Below are positions 3 to 18,695 of a DNA stretch of 18,695 nt, piece by piece (position 1 is the first letter of the stretch; each line of letters starts with the position of its first letter). The notes below the pieces were generated by a model that was not told the DNA's origin, did not search any database, and was given only the letters and a program-made list of their open reading frames with translations. Location of the stretch: positions 64,001 through 82,695 of the IMG/VR virus record IMGVR_UViG_3300033121_001335. One strand, 5' to 3'. Source of the stretch: a virus (lineage: Duplodnaviria; Heunggongvirae; Uroviricota; Caudoviricetes). The position numbers and the translations under genes were made by a program.

Positions 3-257
3 TCATTGTGGGATAAAATGCCACAGGGAACTAAAAAGTGTAGAAGTTGTTCAGGCCCTATTTTTGGGGATTTTAAACCCATATATTTTGACCATTTGTT
101 GTTTAAGGATAAATATCCTCAATACAAAATGACAGAGGCTAATATATGGTTTTTATGCGGAGATTGTCATTATCAGGCCACATCAGGATTTTATAGAGAA
201 AATCATTTGGCAGAACGAGAAAAAGTATTAGCTTTGCATTTAAAAGGAGAATTATGA
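3..257 (+). CDS. HNH/Zn-finger nuclease-like small protein (NinG/HNH-like), probably 5'-truncated by the window edge
   Basis: CRSC near the N-terminus, then FDH-LLFKDKYP...N-IWFLCGDCH, i.e. the CxxC...H...N...CxxCH pattern of HNH proteins. The frame is open to position 3, so the start probably lies upstream; ATG at 18 is an alternative. Confidence 0.65.
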   Translation, partial: SLWDKMPQGTKKCRSCSGPIFGDFKPIYFDHLLFKDKYPQYKMTEANIWFLCGDCHYQATSGFYRENHLAEREKVLALHLKGEL

Positions 258-631
258 TAATAGCTTTGGATTTTGACGGGACATGTGTTTCACATGCATA
301 CCCCAAGGTGGGGGGTGATGTTCCTAATTGTATTAATGTACTTAAAAAACTGGTGGAATGTGGGCATAATTTAATTTTATACACCATGAGGTGTGATTCT
401 GAGTTAACAGATGCTGTAGAATGGTTTAATAAAAAAGATATTCCTCTATATGGAATTCAAAAAAATCCTACCCAAGACACTTGGACTAAATCACCTAAAT
501 GTTATGCAGAAATGTATATTGATGACGCAGCTTTGGGGTGTCCTTTGAGCTATCCCGGTGAGAATACAAGGCCATACGTTGATTGGTATAAAGTGGAGAT
601 AATTTTAAGGGCTAAAAATATAATAATATGA
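254..631 (+). CDS. HAD-superfamily hydrolase/phosphatase, capless (subfamily III-like)
   Basis: Motif I IIALDFDGT, motif II LILYTMR and motif IV MYIDD are present. ATGA overlap with the upstream stop (254-257). Confidence 0.85.
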   Translation: MIIALDFDGTCVSHAYPKVGGDVPNCINVLKKLVECGHNLILYTMRCDSELTDAVEWFNKKDIPLYGIQKNPTQDTWTKSPKCYAEMYIDDAALGCPLSYPGENTRPYVDWYKVEIILRAKNIII

Positions 632-879: not shown

Positions 880-1273
880 TAATATACCTAAAGAGGTGGT
901 GGAGGCTATGGGTATTAGGATGTCTCGATTTGTTGGTAAAGCCCTTATGGATAGGTATCAAGACATAGTAGCTCGCTATCCTAAATGGTTTCCTTGGGAA
1001 ACTAAATATAGGAGTGTTCCTCAAGAAGTTCATGATGCTTATTGGAAGGAGAAATACCCTCCTCTTGACTTTAGTAAGCCGGGAAAGGGCCTTTGGGAGC
1101 AAATAAATAAAAAACCTAAAAAAACTAAAAAAACTCAGTCTTTAACAGAAATGCTAGAAGAATTGTCTAAGATTGAGGAAAAACGAAGAAAAAAAGAAAT
1201 AGCCCGGAAGAAAAAAGATAAAAAACTTTGGGATAAATATTATAAACCATATAAATTAGAATATCGTGAGTGA
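869..1273 (+). CDS. hypothetical protein, Lys/Glu-rich C-terminus (134 aa)
   Basis: Overlaps both neighbours in the operon. The basic, helical-looking C-terminus is KIEEKRRKKEIARKKKDKK. Confidence 0.75.
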   Translation: MFHDNIPKEVVEAMGIRMSRFVGKALMDRYQDIVARYPKWFPWETKYRSVPQEVHDAYWKEKYPPLDFSKPGKGLWEQINKKPKKTKKTQSLTEMLEELSKIEEKRRKKEIARKKKDKKLWDKYYKPYKLEYRE

Positions 1274-1913
1274 ATTAAATGAATTAGGACTTAAATTTGG
1301 TACAGATAAGGCGTCAAATTATCATGGATATTTGACCATATATGAAAAACTATTGGAACCTTTAAAATTAAAGGAGTTTAATCTTTTTGAAATAGGTTGG
1401 GGTGGATATACGTTTCCTGACCGAGGTGGCAATTCGGCTAGAATGTGGGCTGAATATTTCCCTAGTGCTAATATATTATGCTTAGAAAAATATAAAAAAG
1501 ACCCTATTCCTGAGGATAGTGGAATAGTGCTTTTTGAAGGGGAAGAAGACGATGAAAAAATAGTGTCTGGAATCATGACTATATATAACCCGTTAGTGGT
1601 GTTGAATGATGGAAGTCACAATAGCCAGAAATTGATAAAGAATTTTGAGATATGCTTTTCATTAATGCCTTCTGGTGGGATATACATTGGAGAGGATTTA
1701 CACACATCATATTGGGATAGTGAGGAGTATCAAGGAGATGATAGTGGTGATGGATGTGCTAAAACATCAATGAATTTCTTTAAAAAACTTACGGATGTTT
1801 TAAATTGGGAGCACATAGGAAGAAAGGAAAATTATGGTGGATTGGAAAAATATGAAAACCAAATAGAATATATACATTTTTATCCAAGACTAGTGATAAT
1901 TAAAAAGAAATAA
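1266..1913 (+). CDS. class I SAM-dependent methyltransferase, MycE/TylE/ElmM-like sugar O-methyltransferase type
   Basis: GTG start overlapping the upstream stop. Motifs KFGTDK..HGY..IYE, FEIGWGGY..P.RGG.S.RMWAEYFP.A, NDGSH and GGIYIGEDLHTSYW match my recollection of the metal-dependent sugar O-methyltransferase family. Confidence 0.8.
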   Translation: MSELNELGLKFGTDKASNYHGYLTIYEKLLEPLKLKEFNLFEIGWGGYTFPDRGGNSARMWAEYFPSANILCLEKYKKDPIPEDSGIVLFEGEEDDEKIVSGIMTIYNPLVVLNDGSHNSQKLIKNFEICFSLMPSGGIYIGEDLHTSYWDSEEYQGDDSGDGCAKTSMNFFKKLTDVLNWEHIGRKENYGGLEKYENQIEYIHFYPRLVIIKKK

Positions 1914-1914
1914 T

Positions 1915-2133
1915 ATGGCTAAAATAAAATTAATACAAGAATTTGACTTTTCTTTACAAAAATTAGTTTATAGAATAGTAGATGATGGGCAGGACAGACG
2001 TGTTTTTCAAACTATTCTTAGGAACCCCAAAGAATCTAAAGAAGAATATGATGCTAGGGCAGAAATGGAGTTTGACAGCCTTGATTATAAGCTGTTAACA
2101 ACTGTTAATGTAATTAAAACAAGGGAGGTGTAA
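1915..2133 (+). CDS. hypothetical protein (72 aa)
   Basis: TAA-T-ATG junction upstream and TAATG overlap downstream; fills the gap exactly. Confidence 0.7.
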   Translation: MAKIKLIQEFDFSLQKLVYRIVDDGQDRRVFQTILRNPKESKEEYDARAEMEFDSLDYKLLTTVNVIKTREV

Positions 2134-2687
2134 TGGCAGGAGAAACAGGTGTATGGAGCATTGAAGGGGCCTTAGAATATCATGATTTTAGCTATAAACT
2201 GGCTAAACATATTGGTGATATACTGTCAAAAGATGAGGTGGTGATAGATTTTGGATGTGGCAGAGCCACCCTATTAAGATATTTACACGACAGGGGATTT
2301 AAAAAATTATATGGGATAGAGGGAACAGATTTTCCAGCTTTTGAATATGGAAATATATCTGTTCAAGACTTAACACAACCCTTTACCAAAGACTCTATAG
2401 GTAATAGTGTGTGTTTAGAGGTTGGAGAGCATATACCCCAAGAATATACAGACCAATTTATTAAAAATATCACTCAAAATACTAACAAAAGACTTATTCT
2501 TAGCTGGGCAATACCCGGCCAAGCCGGAATTGGACATGTAAATTGTAAACATAATATATGGGTAATAAGTAGGTTGGAAACTATGGGCTTTAAATTAAAT
2601 GTAGAAGATACATTAGAAATAAGACAACATGTTGATAATCACACAGCATATTTTAGAGATACACTATTAATTTTTGATAAAATATGA
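2133..2687 (+). CDS. class I SAM-dependent methyltransferase (type common in glycan loci)
   Basis: Motif I VVIDFGCG, followed by CLEVGEHIP and ILSWAIPGQAGIGHVN. Coupled by TAATG and ATGA overlaps. Confidence 0.85.
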   Translation: MAGETGVWSIEGALEYHDFSYKLAKHIGDILSKDEVVIDFGCGRATLLRYLHDRGFKKLYGIEGTDFPAFEYGNISVQDLTQPFTKDSIGNSVCLEVGEHIPQEYTDQFIKNITQNTNKRLILSWAIPGQAGIGHVNCKHNIWVISRLETMGFKLNVEDTLEIRQHVDNHTAYFRDTLLIFDKI

Positions 2688-4279
2688 AGCAAATAACATA
2701 TGGCAAATGGGGTAAAATGGGCAGGTTGGGCAATCAAATGTTTGAATTGTCAGTCTTGTATTATATGGGAAAACGATGGAATAGGGAACCTATATTACCT
2801 AATGCTTGGAAATATCAGGAACACTTTAAACACCAAGTAAAGATGGGAGAAGCTGTTGACACTAAAAAGGATGTTTGTGAACCTTCTTACGAATTTAGTG
2901 GGTGGGAATATTGGGATAGGGCTGAGGGAGAAAGTGGGGATGTGATGAGTGTAAGTGGCTGGTTACAAAGTTCCAAGTATTTTAATAAGGATATAGCTAA
3001 GGAACTATTTGACTTTACAGAAGAATTTATAGAAAATACTAAAGCTAAGTCTAAAATTAATATGGGGGAATGTTTTACAAAGCCTGTAATAATGATAGGA
3101 TTTAGAGTGGGGAAAGACTATGTGGATAATGGTAATTATGAAATACTATCTCCTTTATATCAAATAAGTGCTTTATATAAATATTTCCCTGATTGGAAAC
3201 AAAACTACAATATATTGGTGTTTAGCGATGACTATCAATATGCTAAGCTAAATATGGATTGTTATGATAACATATATTTTGCCGAGGGATTTAGTGATAT
3301 AGAACAAATGTATTTAGGTACTCTTTGCACCCATTTTATCATACCTAATAGCACCTTTAGCTGGTGGCAAGCTTATTTGGGAGAAAAAGAGGATAGTATG
3401 GTGATAAGACCTTCTAAGTATTTTAAAGGCTACCTACAAACTATTAGTGATACTAAAGACCTATGGGAATCCCATTGGAAATCACACCATTATGAAGGAG
3501 AACTTTTGGATTTAAAAGATGTATGTTTCACTATTCCTGTAAAATATGACCACGAAGACAGAAAAGAGAACTTACAGCTTATTCTTAAATGGATAAATAG
3601 ACATTTTAAAACAAACATATGTATTGGAGAACAGGGGGGAGCAGAATTTAGTAAATTAAAGGGCTGGAATAGTTATATAGGATTCAATACAAAGGACTTT
3701 CATCGCACCAAATTTTTAAATGATATGGCAGAAAGTAGAAATGAACCTATTGTTATTAATTTTGATTGTGATAATGTATGTCCTATATTACAAATAATGA
3801 TAGGAATAGATATGATAAGAGAAGGAAAAGCTGATGGTGTCTATCCTTATGACGGTAGAGTGGCTAGAGTGGATAGAAAAGAGTGGTATGCTAATTTATA
3901 CAACACTGATGGAGATTGTGGAATATTTGGAGGAAAAATATTTAGAGGAACAAGGGCCATTGACCCTCTAAGTGTGGGACACATTATTATATGGAACAAA
4001 GAAAAGTTTTTTGAGGGGGGAGGAGAAAATGAATATTTTATTAGCTATGGCCCAGAAGATGTAGAAAGGTATGAGAGATTTGACAAACTTGGCTATAGGA
4101 TTAAGAGGGTTAAAGGAATTGTTTATCATATAGACCATTGGTGTGGGCCAGATAGTAGCGGGATGAATCCGAAATTTGGTAGGAATTATGATGAATTAGA
4201 ACGAATACGAAAAATGACCAAAGAACAATTGCGAAAAGAAGTTGATAATTGGGCACAAACAAAAAAAGGTAGCGACTAA
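2684..4279 (+). CDS. bifunctional glycosyltransferase: N-terminal GT11 (alpha-1,2-fucosyltransferase-like) fused to C-terminal GT-A (GT2/GT7C-like) domain
   Basis: N-half: GRLGNQMF, GWLQSSKYF, VFSDD, DIEQMYLGTLCTHFIIPNSTFSWWQAYL (GT11 pattern). C-half from about 3510: DVCFTIPV..D..DR.ENL, FHRTKFLN, INFDCD (DxD), GGGENEYFISYGPEDVERYERF.KLGY (GT7C-like). Confidence 0.85.
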   Translation: MKQITYGKWGKMGRLGNQMFELSVLYYMGKRWNREPILPNAWKYQEHFKHQVKMGEAVDTKKDVCEPSYEFSGWEYWDRAEGESGDVMSVSGWLQSSKYFNKDIAKELFDFTEEFIENTKAKSKINMGECFTKPVIMIGFRVGKDYVDNGNYEILSPLYQISALYKYFPDWKQNYNILVFSDDYQYAKLNMDCYDNIYFAEGFSDIEQMYLGTLCTHFIIPNSTFSWWQAYLGEKEDSMVIRPSKYFKGYLQTISDTKDLWESHWKSHHYEGELLDLKDVCFTIPVKYDHEDRKENLQLILKWINRHFKTNICIGEQGGAEFSKLKGWNSYIGFNTKDFHRTKFLNDMAESRNEPIVINFDCDNVCPILQIMIGIDMIREGKADGVYPYDGRVARVDRKEWYANLYNTDGDCGIFGGKIFRGTRAIDPLSVGHIIIWNKEKFFEGGGENEYFISYGPEDVERYERFDKLGYRIKRVKGIVYHIDHWCGPDSSGMNPKFGRNYDELERIRKMTKEQLRKEVDNWAQTKKGSD

Positions 4280-4289
4280 GCTACCTTTT
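4264..4289. terminator. bidirectional intrinsic terminator between convergent operons
   Basis: Perfect 10-bp inverted repeat AAAAGGTAGC (4264-4273), loop GACTAA, GCTACCTTTT (4280-4289). It is followed by 7 T on the - strand and 4 T on the + strand, and sits at the coding-strand switch. Confidence 0.8.
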
Positions 4290-4310
4290 AATTTAAATAT
4301 TATAAATTGT

Positions 4311-4778
4311 CTATTCTTCTTCCTTTTCTTTTTCTGATTTTTCGTACACCAATTTATCAATAATATTCCAATATACATTTCCTCCCACTACATCTCCTGT
4401 TGATTGGTCTACAAAATCTCTTTCTACAAAAACTGCGTGGTGTATTTCTACTTCCATCTCTTCAATTTCTTCAGCTTCTTTTTTAAACTGCTCTGTAAAT
4501 TCAGGTTTAATTTTTTTGGTGGGGATTGATTTTTCTGCAATTCCATCCAAAGCATTTTCTGGTGGGGTGGTTTCAGAATATTTTTCAAATAATTCTTTGA
4601 GATGTTCTACAGCTTGTTTATATTCTTCTTGAAGAGAATTCCCCAATTTCTTTAGCTGATATTTCACCTTTTGAGAGAGATTTTTTGTTAAAAGGGGGTC
4701 TTTAAATTCTTGATTACCAAATATTTCACTAATATATTGTGGTAAAAATTTAACTTGAAATTTTGTACTTGTTGTCAT
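4311..4778 (-). CDS. hypothetical acidic protein, loosely DUF1617-like helical phage protein
   Basis: ATG...TAG ORF ending 21 nt before the terminator. The pattern KVKYQLKKL...L.EE......KELFEKYS...F.KE.EEI.EMEVEI resembles small helical proteins found near phage tail genes; the family call is weak. Confidence 0.65.
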   Translation of the reverse strand: MTTSTKFQVKFLPQYISEIFGNQEFKDPLLTKNLSQKVKYQLKKLGNSLQEEYKQAVEHLKELFEKYSETTPPENALDGIAEKSIPTKKIKPEFTEQFKKEAEEIEEMEVEIHHAVFVERDFVDQSTGDVVGGNVYWNIIDKLVYEKSEKEKEEE

Positions 4779-4807
4779 TTATTGGTTTATTTAAGTTGTA
4801 AATATAG

Positions 4808-5092
4808 TTATTTAAGCTGTAATTGCCAAAAAATATTTCCAGATTTCATGGATTTCGAAAACTCCACATCTGATATTCCACAGGCTGTATTAATAATGTT
4901 AATTTGTGTTATAATTGAATTAACTATAGATATGGATGTGGACAGTCTAAAGGTGTAGCTTTTTGGATTTTTTGTTATTACAAAAATGGAATGTTTATCA
5001 ACATTTTCTATAATGCTTTGTATAAGGTCGAAATAATGAGCTTCATTGTCTGGAATGTGTTCTTTATCAAAGTTCTTATAGAGTATTTCCAT
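4808..5092 (-). CDS. hypothetical protein (94 aa, start revised to MEILYKNF)
   Basis: The track start (5152) overlaps the Dps-like gene by about 60 nt. ATG at 5092 follows the upstream TAA in the same TAA-T-ATG junction used three more times in this window. Confidence 0.7.
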   Translation of the reverse strand: MEILYKNFDKEHIPDNEAHYFDLIQSIIENVDKHSIFVITKNPKSYTFRLSTSISIVNSIITQINIINTACGISDVEFSKSMKSGNIFWQLQLK

Positions 5093-5093
5093 A

Positions 5094-5495
5094 TTAAGAA
5101 AGAGATAGGAGGTATTTAGTTTTTTGGGCTTCCCCGGATAGGCTTTGTGCAATATTTTCTATGTCTCCATATGAATTCTTGTGGGCCCAAGCCTGCAATT
5201 GTTTAGCAAATCTATCAACTTGTTCAACTAATTTAACTGGAGCCCCATTAGAATAGTCTGATAGTGGTGTTATTTTAAATGCTTTCACCCTTCTATTTTG
5301 ATAGCCCATGAGTTTTTCTACTATCTCATCTTTAAATTCCAGAAGCTTGTCATAAAAAGCTCCTAAGGCCTTATGTTCAGCATAGCCCCTCGTTTGCCAA
5401 TGCAGCAAATGAGCTTGGTCATAAAAAAATGATAATTGAGAAGCCACCGCCTCTAATGAAAGCGGTGCTGCTTCCGTTGCAAACAAGTTAGTCAT
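5094..5495 (-). CDS. Dps/ferritin-like four-helix protein (DUF5856-like)
   Basis: QAHLLHWQTRGYAEHKALGAFYDKLLEFKDEIVE matches the Dps pattern H..HW...G....H......Y.......D...E, including the His/His/Asp/Glu iron ligands. Confidence 0.8.
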   Translation of the reverse strand: MTNLFATEAAPLSLEAVASQLSFFYDQAHLLHWQTRGYAEHKALGAFYDKLLEFKDEIVEKLMGYQNRRVKAFKITPLSDYSNGAPVKLVEQVDRFAKQLQAWAHKNSYGDIENIAQSLSGEAQKTKYLLSLS

Positions 5496-5496
5496 A

Positions 5497-5910
5497 TTAA
5501 GTGGTTGCTAATGTATATGATAGTGTACCACCACATCCAAAGCTATCGCTAACTTCTGTCTTTAATTTTAACACCACATCAGACCCATCGGCTGAAAAAG
5601 AACCTAAATATGGAACATTAGCGTTTAGTTTAGACACTAAATCATCTATATCAGTGGTGGCTTCGTCAAACACCAATAACAGGGTTAGCACCTCTGCTGC
5701 ATCACATAACACTGTTAGTGTATATGCTGTATCTGTAGCATCGGCTACAGTGGCTGTTAGAGATGTATAGGGGAAGCAACATTCGTTAACATCTTCTGAT
5801 ACCCATCTACCTGTTCTTGGCATTTTTTGTCTTAAAACACTGCTGCCCGGAACTTTATTGCCCTGACCATCTAAACGGGTGTAAAGCCTGCTTCTGTTAT
5901 TACCTTGCAT
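5497..5910 (-). CDS. hypothetical protein, possibly virion structural/decoration protein
   Basis: TAA-T-ATG junctions on both sides. The N-terminal LY.RLDG.G..VPGS.VLR..MP..G.W....ECC motif is one I recall from small Bacteroidota phage proteins; the C-terminal half is Thr/Ala/Asp-rich and beta-like. The structural role is inference. Confidence 0.7.
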   Translation of the reverse strand: MQGNNRSRLYTRLDGQGNKVPGSSVLRQKMPRTGRWVSEDVNECCFPYTSLTATVADATDTAYTLTVLCDAAEVLTLLLVFDEATTDIDDLVSKLNANVPYLGSFSADGSDVVLKLKTEVSDSFGCGGTLSYTLATT

Positions 5911-5911
5911 A

Positions 5912-7015
5912 TTATTTTGTTTTTATTAAATTATTATATGTTTCTAAAACCTCTTGAGCATATCGTGAGGTGCAATATTTTTGAGAATTATCATCATTTA
6001 CCACCTTATAAACGTCCTCTATATGATTAAATACACTATCTTGGTATTTATTTTTCCAAAAACAAGGGACATTTATAATTACAGGTTTTCCATCTTCCCC
6101 TCTAATACTTTTTTTACTGTCGGTTATACGTATTGAACCATCAGATGTAATCCCCGCATTATGGAGAAGAAATTTATCATTTAAAGCCTCTATTTCATCT
6201 GTAGCCCAAGCAAAATTCATCCATTCTGGTGTTTGTGAAGGGAGTTTATACTTCCACAAATTCCATTGTATGGCCCACATATCAGCACAAAAACTTTGAA
6301 TTCCGTTATTTTCTCTGTCCACTCTCGTGGCTCCGGGGAAAAACTCTTGGTTTATAGTTTGAAAAAATATTCTGATTTTAAGGCAAAGGTCTATACATTC
6401 CGAGAAAAATTTTGGTGTCATATCCTTCAGGAGATATTGAGCACCCCCTGTATTCTCATTTTCTGCTCTTATATCATGAATTGTGAGTCCCGCAAATCTA
6501 GCTGCCCTATCTATTATATTGGCTTTTTTGTATTGTTCTTCTTTTTCTGGAATTACATCCTTAATTTTAGAAGAAAGGTAGGCCTCATTTAAATAAGTTT
6601 TGGTGTTTGATAGGTAATTAACATCATCATCAATGTAATGGGCTATAGGGGACTCAGAAATGAATATAACGTCACTATCAAGGTAGAAGACAGCTGATTT
6701 TTGAAGCTCCGGATAGTCCTTAAAATGCTTCTCAAGCGAACATAGACGATGTATAGGAACATAGTCATAATTCACCATTAAATCTGTCACTTTATTTTGG
6801 ACATCGGTGTAATAAAAGAATTTAGCCTCTGGATACCTAGTTTCCAGCTCTTTCCATTCTTTGAGAAACTCTCTTTGATAAGCTGGAAGAAATACTAAAA
6901 GCCTAAATTTATCTGTTAAATTATATTTAGACAGGTTAAAAAGCTGGGTTTCTGTTTCCCAAACAAACCTTTCTTTATTTTCAACACAGGATATTATAAC
7001 TAACTCTCTAGGCAT
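5912..7015 (-). CDS. GT-A fold glycosyltransferase-like protein, resembling HPAT/SERGT-type protein O-glycosyltransferases
   Basis: FYLDSDVIF (DxD), GGAQYLLK, FCADMWAIQW and LHNAG. The N-terminal F.WE.E..L..L segment precedes a R...L..H segment. GT-A is well supported; the subfamily is tentative. Confidence 0.7.
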   Translation of the reverse strand: MPRELVIISCVENKERFVWETETQLFNLSKYNLTDKFRLLVFLPAYQREFLKEWKELETRYPEAKFFYYTDVQNKVTDLMVNYDYVPIHRLCSLEKHFKDYPELQKSAVFYLDSDVIFISESPIAHYIDDDVNYLSNTKTYLNEAYLSSKIKDVIPEKEEQYKKANIIDRAARFAGLTIHDIRAENENTGGAQYLLKDMTPKFFSECIDLCLKIRIFFQTINQEFFPGATRVDRENNGIQSFCADMWAIQWNLWKYKLPSQTPEWMNFAWATDEIEALNDKFLLHNAGITSDGSIRITDSKKSIRGEDGKPVIINVPCFWKNKYQDSVFNHIEDVYKVVNDDNSQKYCTSRYAQEVLETYNNLIKTK

Positions 7016-7775
7016 TAGTTACATTTAAAGCTAAATTATAATATTTCTCTACAAAAGACTGGGGAGCACAAGAGAGAATTCCATCTCCATGATTATTTTC
7101 ATATTGACGGTGGGCTTCAAAATTGTCTATAGCATCTCCCAACCCTGAAATTTTATGTGTATTATGTCCCTTACTCCAATCATAAATAAGAGTGGGAATC
7201 CCATCTCTATCAACTAACACCTTATTCTCTCTATTTAGTGGTGTTTCCCATCCTTGGTTATAGGACGCAGCGGTTTTTAAATACCCTTTTTCTTTTAGAA
7301 ACTCAAAGTTTATAAAAAAACTCGGTTCCATCGTATTGTGTGATAATTCAGCCTTATTTTCTCCGTATAGATAATAGGAGTAATATGGTTTATAGGCTAA
7401 TTTTCCTTGTTCTACGGCTTTTCTATAGCCTCTCATTCCTTCAGAAGCGTGATTTGGAAGATATAAATCATCCGAGTCTGAATGTGATAACACTTCTGTA
7501 TCCTTATCAACAAATGTTAAAGCGTCTCTGAATATATCCCCTACATTTGTATATGGCTGCCCTGTCTGCAAATCTAGGTGGTTATTTACCAGTTTTATAT
7601 TCTTATTTTCTGACAAGAGAGGCATAATCTGCTCATAATCAAGGATTTGTGGCACATTGGAGTTATTATATAGTAATAATTCCACCTCTCCTGAATAATC
7701 CTGATTGACAAAGCACCTTATTACCCTTTCAACTTTTTGGTGTCTGCCATGAAACGCACATAAAAGAGTTAACAT
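7008..7775 (-). CDS. GT2-family (GT-A) glycosyltransferase (start revised to MLTLLCAF, 255 aa)
   Basis: LTLLCAFHGR....ERVIRCFVNQDY...ELLLYNN, VG..FRDAL and HSDSDDLYLPNH (DxDD) give the GT2 pattern. ATG at 7775 has an AAT-ATG context and lies 22 nt downstream of a TAnnTTTG box; the track start (7832) lies upstream of that box. Confidence 0.8.
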   Translation of the reverse strand: MLTLLCAFHGRHQKVERVIRCFVNQDYSGEVELLLYNNSNVPQILDYEQIMPLLSENKNIKLVNNHLDLQTGQPYTNVGDIFRDALTFVDKDTEVLSHSDSDDLYLPNHASEGMRGYRKAVEQGKLAYKPYYSYYLYGENKAELSHNTMEPSFFINFEFLKEKGYLKTAASYNQGWETPLNRENKVLVDRDGIPTLIYDWSKGHNTHKISGLGDAIDNFEAHRQYENNHGDGILSCAPQSFVEKYYNLALNVTNA

Positions 7776-7797
7776 ATTTAGTTTTTGGTTTAAAAAG

Positions 7798-7805
7798 CAA
7801 AGATA
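7798..7805 (-). promoter_or_regulatory. Bacteroidota sigma70-type -7 box TATCTTTG(C) upstream of the GT2/GT-A/Dps gene block
   Basis: Exact TAnnTTTG match in an intergenic gap, 22 nt before the revised GT2 start. No exact TTTG -33 element. Confidence 0.6.
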
Positions 7806-7822
7806 AGAAGCCCATCTGACAT

Positions 7823-7840
7823 AAAAAAGCATAAATGCTT
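7823..7840 (-). terminator. weak hairpin plus T-run downstream of the holin-like gene
   Basis: Minus strand AAGCA-TTTA-TGCTT-TTTT. The stem is only 5 bp and AT-rich. Confidence 0.3.
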
Positions 7841-7848
7841 ATTATAAT

Positions 7849-7860
7849 GCTATTAGAGCT
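7849..7860 (-). repeat. 12-mer AGCTCTAATAGC, copy 1 (identical copy at 12675-12686)
   Basis: + strand gctattagagct read directly at 7849-7860 and at 12675-12686. Confidence 0.85.
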
Positions 7861-8408
7861 TACATTATATTGTTTCTGATGTGGTTTATAGCAAGTTTTA
7901 TAGACATCACTTGGTCTAGATGTGCCGTCCATCCCTTTTCCCAAGCGGAACCTACAGAGGCGAAATATAAATTTTTTCTATCTTGGCCTAAGAAAAATAT
8001 TTCTGTATAATTTACCCCTTCGGCTAGATAAATATCTTTTAGGAGCTGTGGTTTCATATTTTTAGTTTCTAAAACCACTGATTTTTCTCTACAGATTTCA
8101 TCCAACATTCTAATATAGTCGGAATCAACCCTTAATTGTTGGTATTTCTCTTTTACACTTGGAAAGGGAGGACTATAATCCTCATGTAAAATAGAAACGT
8201 AAAGTGGTGTATTAGCTCTTATAAGTCCACCACCGTTATGTGCTTTAAAAATTAAAAATCTTTGTGCTTCTGTATCATCCAGCACCCTATGCATTTCATC
8301 ATAGATTTTCACCACTTTAGCTATTTGCTTAGATGGTCTGGATAAAATCCTATTAAAAAATTGTACAATCTCTTTTAATACACTAATACTGTCTGATAAT
8401 AATCCCAT
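7860..8408 (-). CDS. holin-like protein with GAF-type domain (T4 gpT/crAss-type holin-like), no clear transmembrane helix
   Basis: RFLIFKAHNGGG..., LYVSILHED, L.D.Y...G..Y..IF.L resemble the GAF-like soluble domain of large phage holins, and the gene lies after tail genes. An in-frame upstream extension hits TGA at 8481-8483 without a hydrophobic segment. Confidence 0.5.
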   Translation of the reverse strand: MGLLSDSISVLKEIVQFFNRILSRPSKQIAKVVKIYDEMHRVLDDTEAQRFLIFKAHNGGGLIRANTPLYVSILHEDYSPPFPSVKEKYQQLRVDSDYIRMLDEICREKSVVLETKNMKPQLLKDIYLAEGVNYTEIFFLGQDRKNLYFASVGSAWEKGWTAHLDQVMSIKLAINHIRNNIM

Positions 8409-8766: not shown

Positions 8767-9174
8767 TTAATAATACACACGGATTTCTATTTGAACGGGA
8801 ACCCCGCTATAAGAAATATCTTTCAGATAAAACGCATCGGCCGGCTCATAGTAATAATTATTCACTTTAATTGTATTATCGCTTGCCCTTTGTATTTGTA
8901 CAAGTGCCGAATAGATACTTGGATTGGTTATACTGACGGTTGAAAAGCAAATAGTTTTATTATTAGTAAATGCACTACTAAGTGTAGCAGTATAATCTCC
9001 CACATCATCCCTTGTCCACACCACCGTACCGCCCAAAGTGTTCTGCAATACCGTAGCTACGGGTGCATCTGTTCCAGATTGTGTAAGCAAGGCTGTATAC
9101 ACTTTATATGGATATAAACAAGAGATTTGTCTTTTGAGTTTTTTTATTTCCTTTTCTATTTGCTGGTTTGTCAT
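8767..9174 (-). CDS. small tail/virion-associated beta-domain protein
   Basis: KVYTALLTQSGTDAPVATVLQNTLGGTVVW....G.Y..TL..AF...KT...IEIRVY is a domain I recognise as recurring at the C-termini of Bacteroidota phage tail proteins. It follows a short coiled N-terminus and lies directly downstream of the tail fibre. Confidence 0.7.
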   Translation of the reverse strand: MTNQQIEKEIKKLKRQISCLYPYKVYTALLTQSGTDAPVATVLQNTLGGTVVWTRDDVGDYTATLSSAFTNNKTICFSTVSITNPSIYSALVQIQRASDNTIKVNNYYYEPADAFYLKDISYSGVPVQIEIRVYY

Positions 9175-12674: not shown

Positions 12675-12686
12675 GCTATTAGAGCT
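12675..12686 (-). repeat. 12-mer AGCTCTAATAGC, copy 2
   Basis: Identical to 7849-7860. It overlaps the TAG of the giant ORF and has the same 43-nt spacing to a TAnnTTTG box. Confidence 0.85.
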
Positions 12687-15600
12687 ATTGTCGTCTAGAC
12701 TCCGTTGATATAGAAATGCCGAGGTCTTTAGCTGTTTCAGCATCAATAAGAGGAACAAATGTCTTAAAGAATTGGTTTGCAATAGGAATCATAGAGAAAA
12801 AGTCCTTTGTAGGATGAGCATTTTCCGCCTGCTGCTCGTTCCCAAATATGATGGCATTTGCCTCCCTTCTAAAGGAATTAGTGAATTTTATACCATCTGT
12901 GAGGAGCCCAAGAGATGGCATCCAGCTTCCTGTTGTAATTTGCTGGAGAGAAAGAGGATTATAATAGAATGAGATTTCATCTGTAAGCTTATCAAGCATT
13001 CTCACCGACACCCTGTAGAAATTCTTGGTTTCATCATCATCTGGCACCCCAGCTCCTTTTAGAGCCATAAAACCAGATAGAAGAGTAAGCAGCACTCCTA
13101 TTTCTTTAGCCTGTTGAGTAATGGCTCTTCTGGTCATATCGTAGAACTCCTCAGGACTCATTTCTAGGTCATTTCCCGTCCTTTCTTTATACGTCTGGGC
13201 TGTACGTATATAATATTTTTCAAGGGCTGCAATGCCCTCAGAATTGCCTGCAACCATATCCCTTAGGGTTTTGATGCCCTGTGGTATGCCTTTAAACCAG
13301 TGACCATCTCCGTCAAATAGAATGTTCCATACCATTCTGGTTCTCCCCATCTCGTATTGGTTAGTGTCTACATTTTTCTGGAGGCCACCAAATCTATTTG
13401 TAGCTAGGGGCGGAATCCAGCGCTTGAACATCATTACGCTCTTTAGGAGGATATTTCTATCAGCATCTATTTTATTTTCTTCTGAAAGGTTGCCTGTAAT
13501 GGTGCGAATTTCGTTAAGAATCTTAAGTCTTAGTTTATTAGTGGTTTCAGAATCCCTATCTACCCCCTCTATTTCTAAGAGTCCCTTTTCGTTAAATTTA
13601 GCAAGTTTCATTACCCCCTTTTGATTTATGAGGGTTCTTACCCGCTCTTCATAGGTTTTTTCTAGTGATTTAGCAGTGTTATTCTTATATCTATCCCTAA
13701 ATTCAGGGCTATTTAAAACATATTCTCTGGCATTAATAAGCTGCCCATCTATAACTATGGTGTTATTAAGAATGGATAGTGATGTAGCCATTTGTACAAG
13801 AACATCTGTTTTTCTGATGGGGGACATAACTAGGTCAGAGAAGGAAAATCTCTGAATTTTGTCCAAAGACATTCTTTCAGCCTTAAGACGAGCCCTATTT
13901 TCTGTAAATGGGAGGAAATAATCCATAAGTCCCTTTTCTATATTGCCCTCTTTTCCCCATAGGTTTCCTATGATTTTCATCTCATTCTTAAGAAACTCTC
14001 TTCCTTTATATAGTTTACGGGAATTAATAAGCCCCTGAAGATTACCACCTATAAATGTAGTCATAGGAGTAAATACATTCAAACCAAACACTTTTAATCG
14101 GAAATACTGATTGGCTTTCTCAATCATTTTAGTGACCCCAGTAGAGAGATTGGAGTCTCCAGAATATTGTTGTTTATATAGAATGGCGTCCACAAAGCTA
14201 TCGTATAAAGCCACATTAGCTTTATTATCAACGTCTTTCTCTAGTTTTCCTGTACCCTTTTCTACTACAATCCTACCCTTGCTATCTAGGAGATAGGCTT
14301 TTTTACCAGCCTCAATATCTCTTACAGACTGAACAGCACCCTCTATATCAGACAAACTCTTATATTCATACATAGCTTCTATGTACATAGATATTGTCTC
14401 TCCTATATCTGTAGAAACATCAGATAGGTCATATCCCTCTAAATTACCATCTTTATCCCTTATTTCTTCTGCAAAATTCTTTGTGAAAAAGGCGGGAATT
14501 CTCTTTTCTATCTGTCCTGTATTAGGGTCCACTCTGGCATAGCTTATTTCTTCCTCTGGTGTGAGAGTGTATATGCTCTTGATGCTATCACCTATAGCTG
14601 ATAAGCCTGAATTCTTTATTCTATCAAGTGTAGAGGCTCTCAGCCAAGGTAGGAATCTGGTGGAGAATTTATAATTACCATCATGATAACCAACATCTTT
14701 GGCTTCCCTGTTTAGAGCTATGATAAAATTATATAAATCTAAGGCAGCTTTGTCTGCGCTCATAGCTTTATACTCATCTGTTTCCCATTTATCCTCATCC
14801 TTAATATAGAATTTAAGGTCTTCCCTTTTCCAACCGGGGGATGATGGCTTAGATATATCCATCCTTTGTTTATATTCGGCTTTCTTTCGGGTTTTCTCTA
14901 TATTATCCTGCTCCGGGTCTCCTATTACATATATACTATCATCCACCTGCTTATTGAATGACTCTATATCCTTATCCTTTGCTTCCTGCCATTTCTCTAA
15001 ATTAATATTCTCCTTAATCCAATCTACATCTGGTTGTTCTGAAGAAATAGCTTTTTTGAATTCGGTGTAGAACTCTGTTTTTATACGGTTCATAAGCTGG
15101 TTCATTGGCTTACCAAGCTTATTCTTGCCAGCTATAAGTATGAAAGCATCCTTTTTAGACAACCCTTTAGAGGAGGCTAATTGCTCAAATGGCTTAAGAA
15201 GGGCTTCAAACTCTTCTTGTTTTGATATAGCGTTCTTTTGCTTCTCAAAATTGGCCCTAGATGTAACAGTACGGAGGTATTGGAGGGCTACATTCTGCAT
15301 TCTAGAAAGGCTCTGTATTGAACGGTTTATCACTCCCTTGATAGGCTTTTCTGTTTTAAGGAGATTTATACCCTCTTTATTTGCATAATAGTGAGCTATA
15401 AACTGTCTGTATTCTGCTTCTATATCTTTACCAAGAACAGAACTATCTAGCGCTAGTCTCTCAAGACTTTTTAGAGTGTCTTCTTGCTTTTCTGTGAGAC
15501 CATCCTTTCCGTAAATATCTATAAATAAGGCGTAAGTAGATTGGTATTTATGGATGTTATCCACAACATTCTTAATTCTACCCCTATATTCTTCTAATTT

Positions 15601-18600
15601 AGTTTTATCAACATCTATATATTTCCCCCCATCTTTGAGTTGTGTATTAATATCTAGCATAAGTCTTTCAGCCCCTTTGAGAAAGAGTAGTCCTTGCTCG
15701 GCTAGTGGGCCAAACTCTTGCTTCACCTGAAGCTCTCTAATGGCTCCAGATATGGCGTTAAGCTGTTCTATCTTTAACACCTTATTTAAATCCTTCTGTT
15801 TATAAAGTGTTTGGTGTAGCTTTTCAAGGGCTTTTATATATTCATCCACCTTAATATTTCCAGATGATTGTTCATCAATAGCTACAGGAAGAAGATAGCG
15901 TTTTGTTTCTTGCTTAATATCCACCTCTGGAAATGTAATAGCAGAAAGCTCAACATCCCCTGTTTTCTTATCCACCCTACCCTTAAATATAATGGGCATA
16001 GCCTGAGCCACTATAACGGCTTTCTCTTTATCCGTATCTTTTAAATTATAGCTTTCTAAAATTCTTTTGTATTGAGATAGCTGTATTTTATAGTCTTGTT
16101 GGGAAAAGAATGGAATATCAGAGTATATGTCTGTATTTAGGAATTTGGTTTTCCAATCATATATCATGATTTGACCATTTGGTGTAATCCCAAATAAGTC
16201 AATGGTTCCTGCTACATCCCTGTTCTTTCTTTCATCATAAACAATAGTTTCTGTTCTAAAGAGGGTTCCTTCCGGGAATTGTGTCTGAAGAATTCCGGGT
16301 ATATATTCTCCCTCTTCCATATATCCTATAAGATATTGTGAAAGAGCTTTAAAAGCTGCCGGATGCATATTTGTTGGTATAGAAGATAGGTCTATTTCAT
16401 TAAATGGCTTTAAATAACCATCAGCATCTGTAGACGCATCTATTATATTCTCTGCATCAGCGTGGAACTGGGAACCAAATGAAGCTTTTTGTTTATAAGT
16501 GTTCTTTTGTATAGGTGTGGCATCTTCAAATCTGGCTAATACTTCTGGTCTTTTACTTTCTTTAACAAAATCCGTAACCCTTTTACTAACCTTTCCAACT
16601 TTACCATCCTTAGCTCTTTGATAAAAGTTAGTATCATCTTGTTCATCAAATTCAGCTTTTCCCGTAATCTTTTCCACTTGGAAATCTACAAGCTTTTTGT
16701 CAAATCTGCTGGAGATTTCTTTTTGAAGGGCCTTTTGTTCAGATGTTAATTGATAATAAGGACTACCAAGAGCTATAATTTGTCGTGCAAGCTCTTCATT
16801 TCCACCTAATTGTTTAAGAGCTATATCATATGGAGCTGTTTTTATTTTTGCCCAAACCTTAAACCCCTCTATATCTTGTTTAGAACCTAATATATGTATT
16901 TGTTCTGGTTCAAATACTACAGCTTGGTTATTATCTATAACTATTCCATCCCCATTAATGCTATTTTTAGCAATTAAATTTTCTGCTGTTTCATTGTTTA
17001 TTTCTACCCAGTTATCATTTACTCTTTCATAATATTTAATGTTAGATTTAGTACCATCTATACTTTCTATCATTAAATATGAACCATGATAAACCTTACC
17101 AGTTTTACTTTGTGCAGCATTAGTTTCTAAATTCCATAGTGTTTTTGCAAACTTTTCATTATTGGAAATAAGTTCTTGTAATTTATCATAAGATGTTTCA
17201 GGTTTAACTATATTAATTAAAGAAGGATTATCAAATTTATAACCTTGTTTACCAAAAAGTCCAGAATTTTTAAAGTAAAAATAAACACCTTTAAAATTCC
17301 CTATCCAATCTCTACTAAAAGATTGTTTAGTAAAATCTATATTACTACCATGATAAACAATATCTTTTATTTTACTATCAGGAAATATAGTATCTAAGTA
17401 TTGAGAGTACTGTTCTTGTGTACCTATATTGGCTAATTCTGGAGATTGTTCAAATACTTCGTTTACGCCTGTTTTTGTGCTTGTTGTAACGTCTTGATTA
17501 GTGGGGGCATGAAGCTGCTCATAAAAATATTTGACAACAGCCTGATAATCACCAGCTTTGAATGTATCAATTAGGGCATTTTTAAAATGTTGTTTACCAT
17601 CCTTAGCTGGCTTCTCTGTAAAATTATCTATAATTTTCTGTGCTAATATTTTAACAGGAGCTCCTTCTTTAGCTAAATCGTCAAAGCTTTCAACAGCCTC
17701 TTGGAATGGATTGAAGCCAGCTTTCTTATTAAGCACACCAAAGAAGGCTAGGATGCGCTCCCACCATGTTTTAGCTTGTTGTAATAATTCTGGGTGCTCT
17801 GTCTGTCCTTCTTCACTGTTTATATACATTTCTGATAGAAGCTTGCCTATAGCCTCTTTCTTAAGCTTTACAATATTAGGGCCGCCATCCGTATTCTGAT
17901 ATTTAGAATCAAGGCTATACAACTGTTTTACACTTGTGTATATGTTATATTTCCCTATTTTGTTCATCATTTCTTTGAACAATTCAGGATTGGTGAGCTC
18001 TATAATATCAACAGCAAAGTGCATGGTTTCTTCAGTAATGGCGACATCCTCTTTTCCTTCAGCTAACTGGATAAGGTTGTTCAGCATGCTGGCTGCTCCA
18101 TTAATACCACCCTCTGGTTGAAGAGTTTGTATTTCTACACCGAGTCTATGGAGCCATTCCTTCACCTTTTTAATTGTTTTAGGAGAAGCCTTGGATTGTG
18201 TTATTCCTTCTTTTTGGAGAAAGACAGATTGAAAAGCCTTATTAGTAATTGTTACTTCATACCAACCATTTCCGTATTCATCAGTAATGCGAGTAGGATT
18301 ATATCCTTGTTTTTTAAGAATATTGAAAATGGCGGTTTCATAAAAAGTACTAATAGCTGCAAATGCTGTTTTGTTAGTTTTAGCATTTTCTATTTCTCTT
18401 TCCAAAATAGCAATTTCATTCCTATTTGCTGCCAACTTATCCCCACTTATAACCCTGTAATCAGCGTTAGTTTTTGAATATTTTTCGGCATCTTCTTTGT
18501 TTTCATAGCTTGCTAGTCCTGCTCCTTGTTTATTAATAGTCCACCATTTACTTGCTAAACTTTTTAATCTATCTTCTTTTAGCTTGATGAATCCACTAAG

Positions 18601-18695
18601 GGTCTCTTGGCCTTCTATTTTATTAGCAGTGTCACCAACAGGAAACAACACCTTCTCATATCCTTTCTTAGCACTATCTTGTATAATAGATTTAA
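12685..18695 (-). CDS. giant polyvalent virion/ejection-type protein (>2000 aa, 5'-truncated) with zincin-like, ADP-ribosyltransferase-like and PD-(D/E)XK domains and a long helical C-terminus
   Basis: The frame stays open past the track's GTG 18651 to the window edge (KSIIQDSAKKGYEKVLFP). EETMH at 18019-18033. YHGS...GVYF...VVFEPEQI at 16852-17469. GSQFH...E...AGTIDL...IYDWKT...QLSQY at about 15880-16593. The C-terminal MFKRW..RFG...N...G.YE.GR resembles large crAss-like virion proteins. Confidence 0.8.
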   Translation of the reverse strand, partial: KSIIQDSAKKGYEKVLFPVGDTANKIEGQETLSGFIKLKEDRLKSLASKWWTINKQGAGLASYENKEDAEKYSKTNADYRVISGDKLAANRNEIAILEREIENAKTNKTAFAAISTFYETAIFNILKKQGYNPTRITDEYGNGWYEVTITNKAFQSVFLQKEGITQSKASPKTIKKVKEWLHRLGVEIQTLQPEGGINGAASMLNNLIQLAEGKEDVAITEETMHFAVDIIELTNPELFKEMMNKIGKYNIYTSVKQLYSLDSKYQNTDGGPNIVKLKKEAIGKLLSEMYINSEEGQTEHPELLQQAKTWWERILAFFGVLNKKAGFNPFQEAVESFDDLAKEGAPVKILAQKIIDNFTEKPAKDGKQHFKNALIDTFKAGDYQAVVKYFYEQLHAPTNQDVTTSTKTGVNEVFEQSPELANIGTQEQYSQYLDTIFPDSKIKDIVYHGSNIDFTKQSFSRDWIGNFKGVYFYFKNSGLFGKQGYKFDNPSLINIVKPETSYDKLQELISNNEKFAKTLWNLETNAAQSKTGKVYHGSYLMIESIDGTKSNIKYYERVNDNWVEINNETAENLIAKNSINGDGIVIDNNQAVVFEPEQIHILGSKQDIEGFKVWAKIKTAPYDIALKQLGGNEELARQIIALGSPYYQLTSEQKALQKEISSRFDKKLVDFQVEKITGKAEFDEQDDTNFYQRAKDGKVGKVSKRVTDFVKESKRPEVLARFEDATPIQKNTYKQKASFGSQFHADAENIIDASTDADGYLKPFNEIDLSSIPTNMHPAAFKALSQYLIGYMEEGEYIPGILQTQFPEGTLFRTETIVYDERKNRDVAGTIDLFGITPNGQIMIYDWKTKFLNTDIYSDIPFFSQQDYKIQLSQYKRILESYNLKDTDKEKAVIVAQAMPIIFKGRVDKKTGDVELSAITFPEVDIKQETKRYLLPVAIDEQSSGNIKVDEYIKALEKLHQTLYKQKDLNKVLKIEQLNAISGAIRELQVKQEFGPLAEQGLLFLKGAERLMLDINTQLKDGGKYIDVDKTKLEEYRGRIKNVVDNIHKYQSTYALFIDIYGKDGLTEKQEDTLKSLERLALDSSVLGKDIEAEYRQFIAHYYANKEGINLLKTEKPIKGVINRSIQSLSRMQNVALQYLRTVTSRANFEKQKNAISKQEEFEALLKPFEQLASSKGLSKKDAFILIAGKNKLGKPMNQLMNRIKTEFYTEFKKAISSEQPDVDWIKENINLEKWQEAKDKDIESFNKQVDDSIYVIGDPEQDNIEKTRKKAEYKQRMDISKPSSPGWKREDLKFYIKDEDKWETDEYKAMSADKAALDLYNFIIALNREAKDVGYHDGNYKFSTRFLPWLRASTLDRIKNSGLSAIGDSIKSIYTLTPEEEISYARVDPNTGQIEKRIPAFFTKNFAEEIRDKDGNLEGYDLSDVSTDIGETISMYIEAMYEYKSLSDIEGAVQSVRDIEAGKKAYLLDSKGRIVVEKGTGKLEKDVDNKANVALYDSFVDAILYKQQYSGDSNLSTGVTKMIEKANQYFRLKVFGLNVFTPMTTFIGGNLQGLINSRKLYKGREFLKNEMKIIGNLWGKEGNIEKGLMDYFLPFTENRARLKAERMSLDKIQRFSFSDLVMSPIRKTDVLVQMATSLSILNNTIVIDGQLINAREYVLNSPEFRDRYKNNTAKSLEKTYEERVRTLINQKGVMKLAKFNEKGLLEIEGVDRDSETTNKLRLKILNEIRTITGNLSEENKIDADRNILLKSVMMFKRWIPPLATNRFGGLQKNVDTNQYEMGRTRMVWNILFDGDGHWFKGIPQGIKTLRDMVAGNSEGIAALEKYYIRTAQTYKERTGNDLEMSPEEFYDMTRRAITQQAKEIGVLLTLLSGFMALKGAGVPDDDETKNFYRVSVRMLDKLTDEISFYYNPLSLQQITTGSWMPSLGLLTDGIKFTNSFRREANAIIFGNEQQAENAHPTKDFFSMIPIANQFFKTFVPLIDAETAKDLGISISTESRRQ

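Follow-up and report, generated by a model that had tools for sequence, protein, structure and literature searches.

To our knowledge, glycosylated phage particles have been demonstrated experimentally only for mycobacteriophages, whose virion glycans blunt antibody recognition. The phages concerned include Che8, Corndog and Myrna, as far as can be told from the statements in which two later papers (PMC12363180, PMC12619734) cite Freeman et al. 2023. Among eukaryotic viruses, chlorovirus PBCV-1 encodes A064R, a protein with two rhamnosyltransferase domains and a 2-O-methyltransferase that extends and methylates the capsid glycan in the cytoplasm; A111/114R is described in the same connection (PMC7826918). 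Here we describe a set of glycosyltransferase (GT) and methyltransferase genes in an 18,695-nucleotide stretch of viral DNA, referred to below as the window, which covers bases 64001-82695, the terminal part of an 82.7-kb IMG/VR virus contig (record IMGVR_UViG_3300033121_001335) with an estimated completeness of 71%. The contig is that of a crAss-like phage: its major capsid protein matches the Pfam family Crass_capsid (E 2e-24), and its portal and terminase match crAss-type PHROGs. A literature search on virion glycosylation in crAss-like phages or on poly-threonine virion tails found nothing relevant.

Because the contig encodes both a cluster of enzymes that add and methylate sugars and an outer capsid protein with a conserved Ser/Thr tail, the particle is probably coated with sugar. 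The best reading of the locus, and one with a reasonable probability of being correct, is in our view that the capsid Ser/Thr tails are O-glycosylated in the cytoplasm and that the glycan is then extended and methylated. A preliminary description of this DNA had listed four GT domains in three genes, together with two S-adenosylmethionine (SAM) methyltransferases, and had interpreted them as one ordered pathway for the decoration of virion proteins. All of these domains are present at the coordinates given below, as judged by Pfam, PHROG, Atlas, structural and motif evidence. Decoration of the virion is still the best-supported reading, owing to the Ser/Thr tail, the poly-Thr proteins of related loci and the occurrence of the same GT family in distant phages, whereas the notion of a single conserved and ordered pathway was not borne out. 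The features on which the argument turns are as follows.

5912-7015, minus strand: core GT-A glycosyltransferase (P0001, 367 residues) of the phrog_4417 family, assigned by fold, motifs and synteny
7008-7775, minus strand: GT2-like GT-A glycosyltransferase (P0002), near-core partner of the core GT-A, assigned by Atlas and structure
5497-5910, minus strand: small protein whose conserved N-terminal module of 47 residues precedes a variable, Thr-rich C-terminal part
contig 2616-3752, minus strand, outside the window: homologue of the auxiliary capsid protein (P0126, 378 residues), three genes after the capsid gene
2684-4279, plus strand: two-domain glycosyltransferase of 531 residues, GT11 (1-266) followed by a GT2/GT7C-like GT-A domain (about 276-525)
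2133-2687, plus strand: class I SAM methyltransferase (P0004), overlapping the start of the GT11 gene by 4 bases
1266-1913, plus strand: catalytic domain of a MycE/TylE-type metal-dependent sugar O-methyltransferase (P0005, 215 residues)

The core glycosyltransferase and its candidate acceptors

The protein encoded at 5912-7015 had no Pfam or NCBIfam match (E 0.01) and was placed in no curated family, be it Pfam GT8 or another; sequence searches of the Protein Data Bank (PDB) with P0001, P0002 and P0003 returned nothing meaningful. It belongs to phrog_4417 (E 3e-30), and its AlphaFold2 model, with a predicted local-distance difference test (pLDDT) score of 95.7, has the Rossmann-like GT-A fold of the DxD-dependent glycosyltransferases in the GT8-like retaining clan. 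Comparison with known structures gave VIA Z 14-15 against glycogenin, LgtC, UGGT and GlyE, with 230-250 residues aligned for the first three, and the Skp1 galactosyltransferase was also among the best structural matches in the PDB. The best match in AFDB-SwissProt was the peptidyl-Ser alpha-galactosyltransferase SGT1 (E 4e-10, template modelling (TM) score 0.55), and the top eight matches, which extend over the whole catalytic domain at TM 0.52-0.56, were SGT1 or hydroxyproline (Hyp) O-arabinosyltransferases (HPATs). In plants and algae, SGT1 (GT96) and the Hyp O-arabinosyltransferases (GT95) add the first sugar to Ser or Hyp of repetitive cell-wall proteins. The best matches in BFVD were unnamed phage proteins and Orf49 of Lactobacillus phage LP65.

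The DSD motif (D113/D115) is invariant in 47 homologues of the core GT-A; other invariant residues are GGA at 190-192, Y194, D245 and H285, and Q193 is nearly invariant. The family is represented by 206 homologues in the protein collection and by 429 IMG/VR stretches. With its modelled fold in mind, we propose the core GT-A as a candidate enzyme for the glycosylation of Ser/Thr tails of virion proteins. A prediction of the complex between the GT-A and the C-terminal 43 residues of the auxiliary capsid protein scored 0.02 and is neutral on binding.

The model of P0126 matches chain a of the phicrAss001 capsid structure 7qof (Foldseek, E 4e-12), and this chain of 333 residues agrees with the auxiliary capsid protein gp36 both in size and in where the gene lies in the crAss001 record. 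The outer layer of the crAss001 capsid wall is formed by gp36, with nine copies per asymmetric unit (PMC10172136). P0126 ends in about 19 Ser/Thr residues followed by LIP (...NTTTTSTSTSSTSSTTSTTTLLP), and no other real gene of the contig encodes a strong Ser/Thr tract. The P0126 family produced more than 1,235 matches. The tail is kept in 115 of the best 120 homologues, with 17-20 Ser/Thr residues and the ending L-I/V-P; its length and the terminal LIP are conserved among the homologues, while the flanking sequence drifts. All five complete relatives (114-122 kb) in which the GT-A was found, at 34-38% identity, carry the tail. It is absent from gp36 of crAss001 and from the homologue in Flavobacterium phage FPSV-S29, and no Bacteroides or Flavobacterium phage record is among the 73 tblastn matches of the GT-A. 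Homologues of P0126 are labelled only as 'hypothetical protein' in public records.

A second candidate acceptor is encoded at 5497-5910, directly downstream of the GT-A gene, and was found by tblastn in 78 of 82 related loci. About 100 proteins of these loci share the module LKAFVRFDGSGRIVAGSLILRxxKPKVGxWxEIxAYECCN, which in many paralogues is followed immediately by poly-Thr/Pro tracts such as TTTTTTTVAPTTTTTTTT. In 96 open reading frames (ORFs) of the related loci, a stretch of 12 residues includes 9 or more Ser/Thr; 73 of these ORFs fall into the module cluster, and in 47 of the 73 the tract begins no more than 10 residues from the ECC motif. The protein has no Pfam or NCBIfam match. The head fibres of phicrAss001 dock into pockets of the capsid hexons through their first 38-58 residues (PMC10172136). 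By analogy, the product of 5497-5910 might be a candidate capsid-anchored fibre and glycan acceptor, its anchor being suggested by architecture alone; a hidden Markov model (HMM) of the 47-residue module had no significant similarity to the phicrAss001 head-fibre proteins gp21 and gp29 (E 0.28, two sequences). The ORF o8767 was considered as a paralogue of the module and rejected, since in this contig the module HMM finds 5497-5910 only and the shared BLAST cluster was due to single linkage.

The GT-A family extends well beyond the crAss-like phages. In tblastn searches it was detected in 73 phage records at 24-27% identity (E 1e-11 to 1e-24), mostly of phages infecting Enterococcus, Lactobacillus, Staphylococcus, Lactococcus and Clostridium. 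In each of the six cultured phages examined (iLp84, phiFL1A, phiCTP1, VPE25, PT94 and MA9V-3), the GT lies beside proteins with poly-Thr tracts. These are mostly C-terminal tails and are internal in Chryseobacterium phage MA9V-3; in iLp84, phiFL1A and VPE25, the tails are found on annotated capsid or major-tail proteins. The GT gene of iLp84 follows the capsid gene and is preceded by a small poly-Thr ORF, and the capsid and major tail proteins of this phage end in ...PTTTTTTTSK and ...ETTTTTTTSK, respectively. In phiFL1A, the GT comes directly after the major tail protein, which, like gp45 in the capsid position, ends in a long poly-Thr tail.

A conserved core and a variable periphery

To describe the neighborhood of the core GT-A, ORFs from the 82 related loci were clustered, and families were counted over those 31 distinct loci in which 8 kb or more of downstream sequence was available. 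The core GT-A is present in all 31. The end of the late operon contains, in order, variable small proteins, the GT-A, one to three small proteins, a DUF5856 protein (28/31) and an ORF of about 95 residues (31/31). On the other side, the replication operon runs through RecA, PhoH and small ORFs to GT2 (27/31) and then to variable genes, which include the MycE-like methyltransferase (14/31, usually beside GT2), weak GT-A-like ORFs (17/31), the GT11 family (5/31), GT6 and a hexapeptide acetyltransferase. The synteny of the relatives thus confines the core to GT-A and GT2, the GT11 fusion and both methyltransferases being lineage-variable, and it does not support the earlier view that the six genes form one conserved pathway. 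As a set, the six are kept only in the closest subclade (L012-L014; GT-A identity 57-60%); within the same subclade, L007 keeps the GT genes and has no match to either methyltransferase (MT1 or MT2). GT2 either adjoins GT-A, as it does in this window, L007, L016/L017 and L075, or lies on the opposite strand across the junction, beside the MycE-like methyltransferase. We therefore treat the two operon ends as one island, consisting of a two-GT core and a diversifying periphery.

Several further genes were observed around the GT-A of relatives. Two genes after the GT-A of the distant relative L006 (12416-14449) is a 670-residue fusion of a nucleoside-diphosphate (NDP)-sugar epimerase/dehydratase and Methyltransf_13/14 (C-methyltransferase type), and some lineages would therefore produce unusual sugar donors of their own. 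A second multi-copy family, with 148 ORFs (median 134 residues) in 48 loci and three to five tandem copies (e.g., L036:12520-15574, L041:12505-15399 and L088:12319-15062), occupies the last part of the late operon in most relatives; it has no Pfam match and no member in this window. Homing endonuclease genes of the NUMOD3 and HNH/NUMOD4 types lie directly beside the GT-A in many relatives (e.g., L040:11016-11726 and L066:9399-10001).

The start of the GT2-like gene is probably M20 of ORF 7008-7832. That ORF has no Pfam or NCBIfam match of its own, and tblastn of P0002 against phage records gave no match. P0002 resembles GT2 both in its ESM Atlas features (0.98) and in structure (TM 0.64-0.79 to GT2 clusters), and a member of its family in another locus (L040:17852-18631) matches Pfam GT2 (E 2e-10). 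R11 and D102/D103 of the SDSDD sequence are invariant among 35 family members.

In the protein encoded at 2684-4279, residues 13-246 match Pfam Glyco_transf_11 (PF01531; E 1e-15, 58.2 bits against a cut-off of 23.9), and the C-terminal GT-A domain matches Glyco_transf_7C (E 8e-5) and phrog_15655 (E 5e-43). The DxD residues (D361/D363) and H482/H485 are invariant in 36 homologues. The HxRRGD motif, which we take to be the donor-binding motif of GT11, has the family consensus IRRGDY; the sequence of this copy is FRVGKDY, where R141 and D145 are invariant. GT11 is the alpha-1,2-fucosyltransferase family, and the fucose-like cap put forward in the preliminary description is conjectural, the donor motif being altered here. 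Among 379 metagenome homologues, many carry a fused SAM methyltransferase domain. The protein is a putative glycan-extending enzyme that varies among lineages. GT11 and GT2/GT7C are also adjacent or fused in the T4-like cyanomyoviruses S-SCSM1, P-TIM68, S-T4 and S-SSM7 (24-30% identity), which suggests that widely differing groups of aquatic phages have exchanged glycan genes.

P0004, encoded at 2133-2687, has a weak Pfam match (E 1e-3, below the cut-off), Atlas values of 0.98-0.99 and a structure that aligns with TM of about 0.9, and up to 0.96, to Methyltransf_23/11 clusters, some of which are fused to GTs. Relatives of 698-765 residues have a methyltransferase domain homologous to P0004 fused to GT11-GT2C (BLASTP E 1e-8 to residues 560-706 of P0271). 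This fusion ties the methyltransferase to glycan synthesis, and P0004 is, by homology, probably a glycan methyltransferase. P0005, encoded at 1266-1913, belongs to phrog_21658 (E 2.5e-24) and matches MycE (3ssm, E 7e-24) and TylE (8ia9, E 7e-18) in the PDB. It keeps the aligned EIGxGGY, DGSH and ED motifs (SAM, His-base and metal motifs); the residue roles assigned to the MycE motifs reportedly come from work by Akey and colleagues in 2011. The N-terminal auxiliary domain of MycE is absent from P0005, the alignment beginning at MycE residue 183.

On the Kyte-Doolittle scale, the hydrophobicity of 19-residue segments does not exceed 1.31 in any GT or methyltransferase of the window, in agreement with the earlier statement that the enzymes lack transmembrane segments. 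The reported absence of flippase and Gtr-type genes also held up: no GtrA/GtrC-type match was found, and credible membrane segments are absent from all ORFs of the window. The same cannot be said of the 'holin-like' genes that had been placed before the GTs. ORFs 7860-8408, 8767-9174 and 4311-4778 lack a membrane segment, and the first two, which lie between the fibre gene and the GTs, have no Pfam or NCBIfam match. The PHROG holin match of 4311-4778 is weak (E 4e-4), and the 'holin-like' label was rejected. The ORF, on the minus strand, encodes an acidic, hydrophilic, lysine/glutamate-rich protein of 155 residues and is the last gene of the late operon in the closest subclade. The remaining features of the window, and the organization of the contig, are listed below.

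254-631, plus strand: small HAD-type phosphatase of the BT0820 family (NCBIfam NF046079, E 2e-24, below the cut-off; phrog_1238, E 6e-31)
4264-4289: stem-loop between A and T runs at the convergent junction (1 site against 0.1 expected in shuffles)
4808-5152, minus strand: ORF of 114 residues, conserved after the GT-A in the late operon
5094-5495, minus strand: DUF5856 protein (Pfam DUF5856, E 2e-14)
contig 0.4-18.7 kb, minus strand: structural block
contig 18.7-68.3 kb, plus strand: early/replication block
contig 68.3-82.7 kb, minus strand: second block on this strand, with a giant protein and a fibre gene

The glycan genes span the junction at which the replication operon and the late (fibre) operon converge, and the stem-loop at 4264-4289 is likely a two-way terminator that closes both. 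The HAD-type phosphatase accompanies the island in L007, L012, L013 and L090; it possibly serves a sugar-phosphate step, and its membership of the island is uncertain. At the end of the window, an ORF of at least 2,002 residues (12685-18693, minus strand) runs off the contig; it has no Pfam or PHROG match and shows 28-63% identity to giant proteins of related loci. Within the structural block, an N-acetylmuramoyl-L-alanine amidase (contig 1589-2140, minus strand; Pfam Amidase_3, E 7e-15) is likely the endolysin. A megablast search of the entire window against phage records gave no match. The isolates nearest by terminase are Leptolyngbya phage Lbo-JY46 (33% identity), Cellulophaga phi17:2 and gut crAss phages, and the genomes of relatives are 110-125 kb in size.

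A proposed route to a glycosylated capsid and the alternatives

In the scheme that we favor, the core GT-A would act late in infection, in the cytoplasm, using a nucleotide-sugar of the host to glycosylate Ser/Thr residues in exposed tails of virion proteins. The main acceptor would be the C-terminal tail of P0126, with the Thr-rich protein next to the GT as a second candidate. The GT2-like enzyme (7008-7775) and the GT11-GT2 fusion may then extend the glycan, the MycE-like and class I methyltransferases would O-methylate its sugars, and the variable enzymes would give each phage lineage a glycan of its own. No NDP-sugar epimerase or nucleotidyltransferase gene was found on the contig; host nucleotide sugars are therefore the likely donors, consistent with the use of host NDP-sugars that had been suggested previously. 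What the analysis demonstrates is the folds and motifs of the enzymes, the synteny, and the conserved tails together with their co-occurrence with the GT family, whereas the acceptor, the sugars, the order of the steps and the biological role, whether shielding or adhesion, are inferred.

Several observations weigh against this scheme. Its support is wholly comparative and structural, and the phage is uncultured. The contrast set is small, consisting of two crAss-like phages with neither a detected GT nor a tail. P0126, the strong acceptor candidate, is encoded about 67 kb from the GT on the contig, and the single copy of the module in this contig is Thr-rich and lacks a poly-Thr tract. Tracts of Ser/Thr may also serve as linkers that carry no modification. 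The replication operon ends with the methyltransferases and the GT11 fusion, for which another target is possible, and the second Arg of the GT11 donor motif has been replaced in this copy. Finally, hhalign comparison of the P0001 family profile with gp108, gp109 and gp110 of Che8 gave probabilities of 0.1-0.2% each, that is, no similarity.

Host-glycan remodelling, and not the DNA hypermodification named in the preliminary description, is the main rival. One could envision that some or all of the soluble GTs and methyltransferases modify undecaprenyl-linked O-antigen, capsule or O-glycan precursors of the host at the cytoplasmic face of the membrane; the flippase and ligase of the host would complete the process, and the resulting change of receptor would block superinfection or stop the loss of progeny on debris. 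The lack of membrane segments or of a flippase does not exclude host lipid-linked glycans as substrates; most O-antigen GTs also lack such segments. Moreover, GT11, GT2, GT6, the acetyltransferase, the NDP-sugar epimerase and the C-methyltransferase make up a variable set like that of an O-antigen locus, the plus-strand genes end the replication operon and not the late operon, and the homologous GT11 and GT2 pairs of cyanomyoviruses have been interpreted as cell-surface modifiers (PMC12801897). However, the searches detected neither an initiating phosphoglycosyltransferase nor a flippase, polymerase or Gtr-type gene, and the window encodes no membrane protein. The gene for the core GT-A, where the late operon ends, points the same way as the fibre genes, the enzyme tracks Ser/Thr-tailed virion proteins across unrelated phages, and the GT2 family shifts between both sides of the junction. 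We think that host-glycan remodelling is unlikely to be the correct explanation; it may apply to the plus-strand island only (MT1, MT2 and GT11-GT2C).

Alternatively, the Ser/Thr tails could be plain flexible spacers, the GTs making a soluble or other glycoconjugate, with the co-occurrence of GT and tail arising from shared ancestry or from a hitch-hiking module. The complex prediction favours neither view, and all members of the crAss-like clade have both the GT and the tail, so that they provide little independent contrast. Nevertheless, the pairing recurs with unrelated capsid and tail proteins in siphophages of Firmicutes, in a Chryseobacterium phage and in crAss-like phages, the length of the tail and its terminal LIP are conserved despite drifting flanks, and the fold of the GT is nearest to that of peptide O-glycosyltransferases. 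For these reasons, we give the spacer explanation less credence still than host-glycan remodelling. DNA hypermodification, in which the GTs would glycosylate hydroxymethylated bases against restriction and the methyltransferases would modify the sugar or the base, appears highly improbable: phage GTs often act on DNA, to go by the mention of Pyle et al. 2024 in PMC12619734, and a 5'-nucleotidase-like gene is present on the contig, but the alternative is weak because no hydroxymethylase was found, there being no ThyA-family hydroxymethylase, ThyX or TET/JBP gene (PF00303, PF02511 and PF12851) on the contig, by which the replication block appears to be fully covered, and no ThyA-family gene (PF00303) in five complete relatives, and, in addition, the core GT belongs to the late operon and MycE-type enzymes methylate sugars on small molecules.

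Implications and comparison with known systems

Virion glycosylation, if it takes place as proposed, has consequences beyond this contig. A large environmental clade of crAss-like phages, with more than 1,200 homologues of the auxiliary capsid protein and more than 400 GT loci, could wear a dense, mucin-like coat, although we put this forward tentatively, as a generalization that stands a little below an even chance. About 500 copies or more of the auxiliary capsid protein, each with about 19 Ser/Thr, together with poly-Thr head fibres, would provide O-glycosylation sites on the order of 10,000 per capsid. The two-GT core would build the glycans, and the hypervariable island (GT11, GT6 and enzymes for methyl-, acetyl- and C-methyl-sugars) would act like a serotype locus of the phage. 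A GT family without a Pfam entry would then mark virion glycosylation across phages of Firmicutes and Bacteroidota and crAss-like phages, and sugar-coated virions would be common and not peculiar to actinobacteriophages. The chemistry of the virion surface, adhesion to mucus and polysaccharide, recognition by host defences or the immune system and performance in phage therapy would all have to be reconsidered. The combination of the GT family and the Ser/Thr-tail signature would furnish a simple sequence rule that predicts glycosylated virions, and the idea can be tested directly in the cultured phages VPE25, phiFL1A, iLp84, phiCTP1 and MA9V-3, which carry this GT family. The variable methyl-sugar enzymes are, furthermore, a source of new glyco-enzymes.

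The phages of Gram-positive bacteria that combine phrog_4417 with poly-Thr tracts, an association that is unannotated in public records, resemble this phage in their GT family and in having tracts, of Thr only, on proteins of the virion module. They have one GT in or beside the head or tail block and short tails on the major capsid or major tail protein. In this phage, by contrast, the GT is located where the fibre operon ends, the auxiliary capsid protein carries the tail, and an extra GT2, the GT11-GT2 fusion and two methyltransferases are present.

The Che8 type of system, so far as the secondary accounts of it go, shares with this locus the use of soluble GTs encoded by the phage and a cytoplasmic process that belongs to the lytic cycle. 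The same accounts place the glycans at the C-termini of the main surface proteins, and the candidate acceptor proposed here is likewise a C-terminus, that of the auxiliary capsid protein. The capsid and tail proteins of Che8 end in ...NKTGS and ...YSDGS and not in poly-Ser/Thr. This phage further differs in that the candidate acceptor is the auxiliary capsid protein of a crAss-like podophage and in that two methyltransferases and a GT11 domain are added.

As for the individual enzymes, the GT-GT-methyltransferase arrangement of chlorovirus A064R is also that of the single-polypeptide GT11-GT2C-methyltransferase proteins of relatives; PBCV-1 is a giant virus of eukaryotes with N-linked glycans on its major capsid protein, and the likeness is one of architecture only. 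The GT95 and GT96 enzymes are the best full-length structural matches of the core GT-A (E 4e-10 to 1e-7, TM 0.52-0.56), at an identity of 9-10%, and are membrane-anchored proteins of the Golgi, unlike the soluble phage protein. With MycE and TylE, P0005 shares a catalytic domain with the SAM, DGSH and ED motifs; it lacks the first 180 or so residues of MycE, and its presumed substrate is a protein-linked sugar and not the sugar of a macrolide. Overall, we think it fairly probable that this system works in the manner of virion glycosylation in mycobacteriophages and chloroviruses, by means of an unrelated and unannotated GT family and mucin-like Ser/Thr tails.

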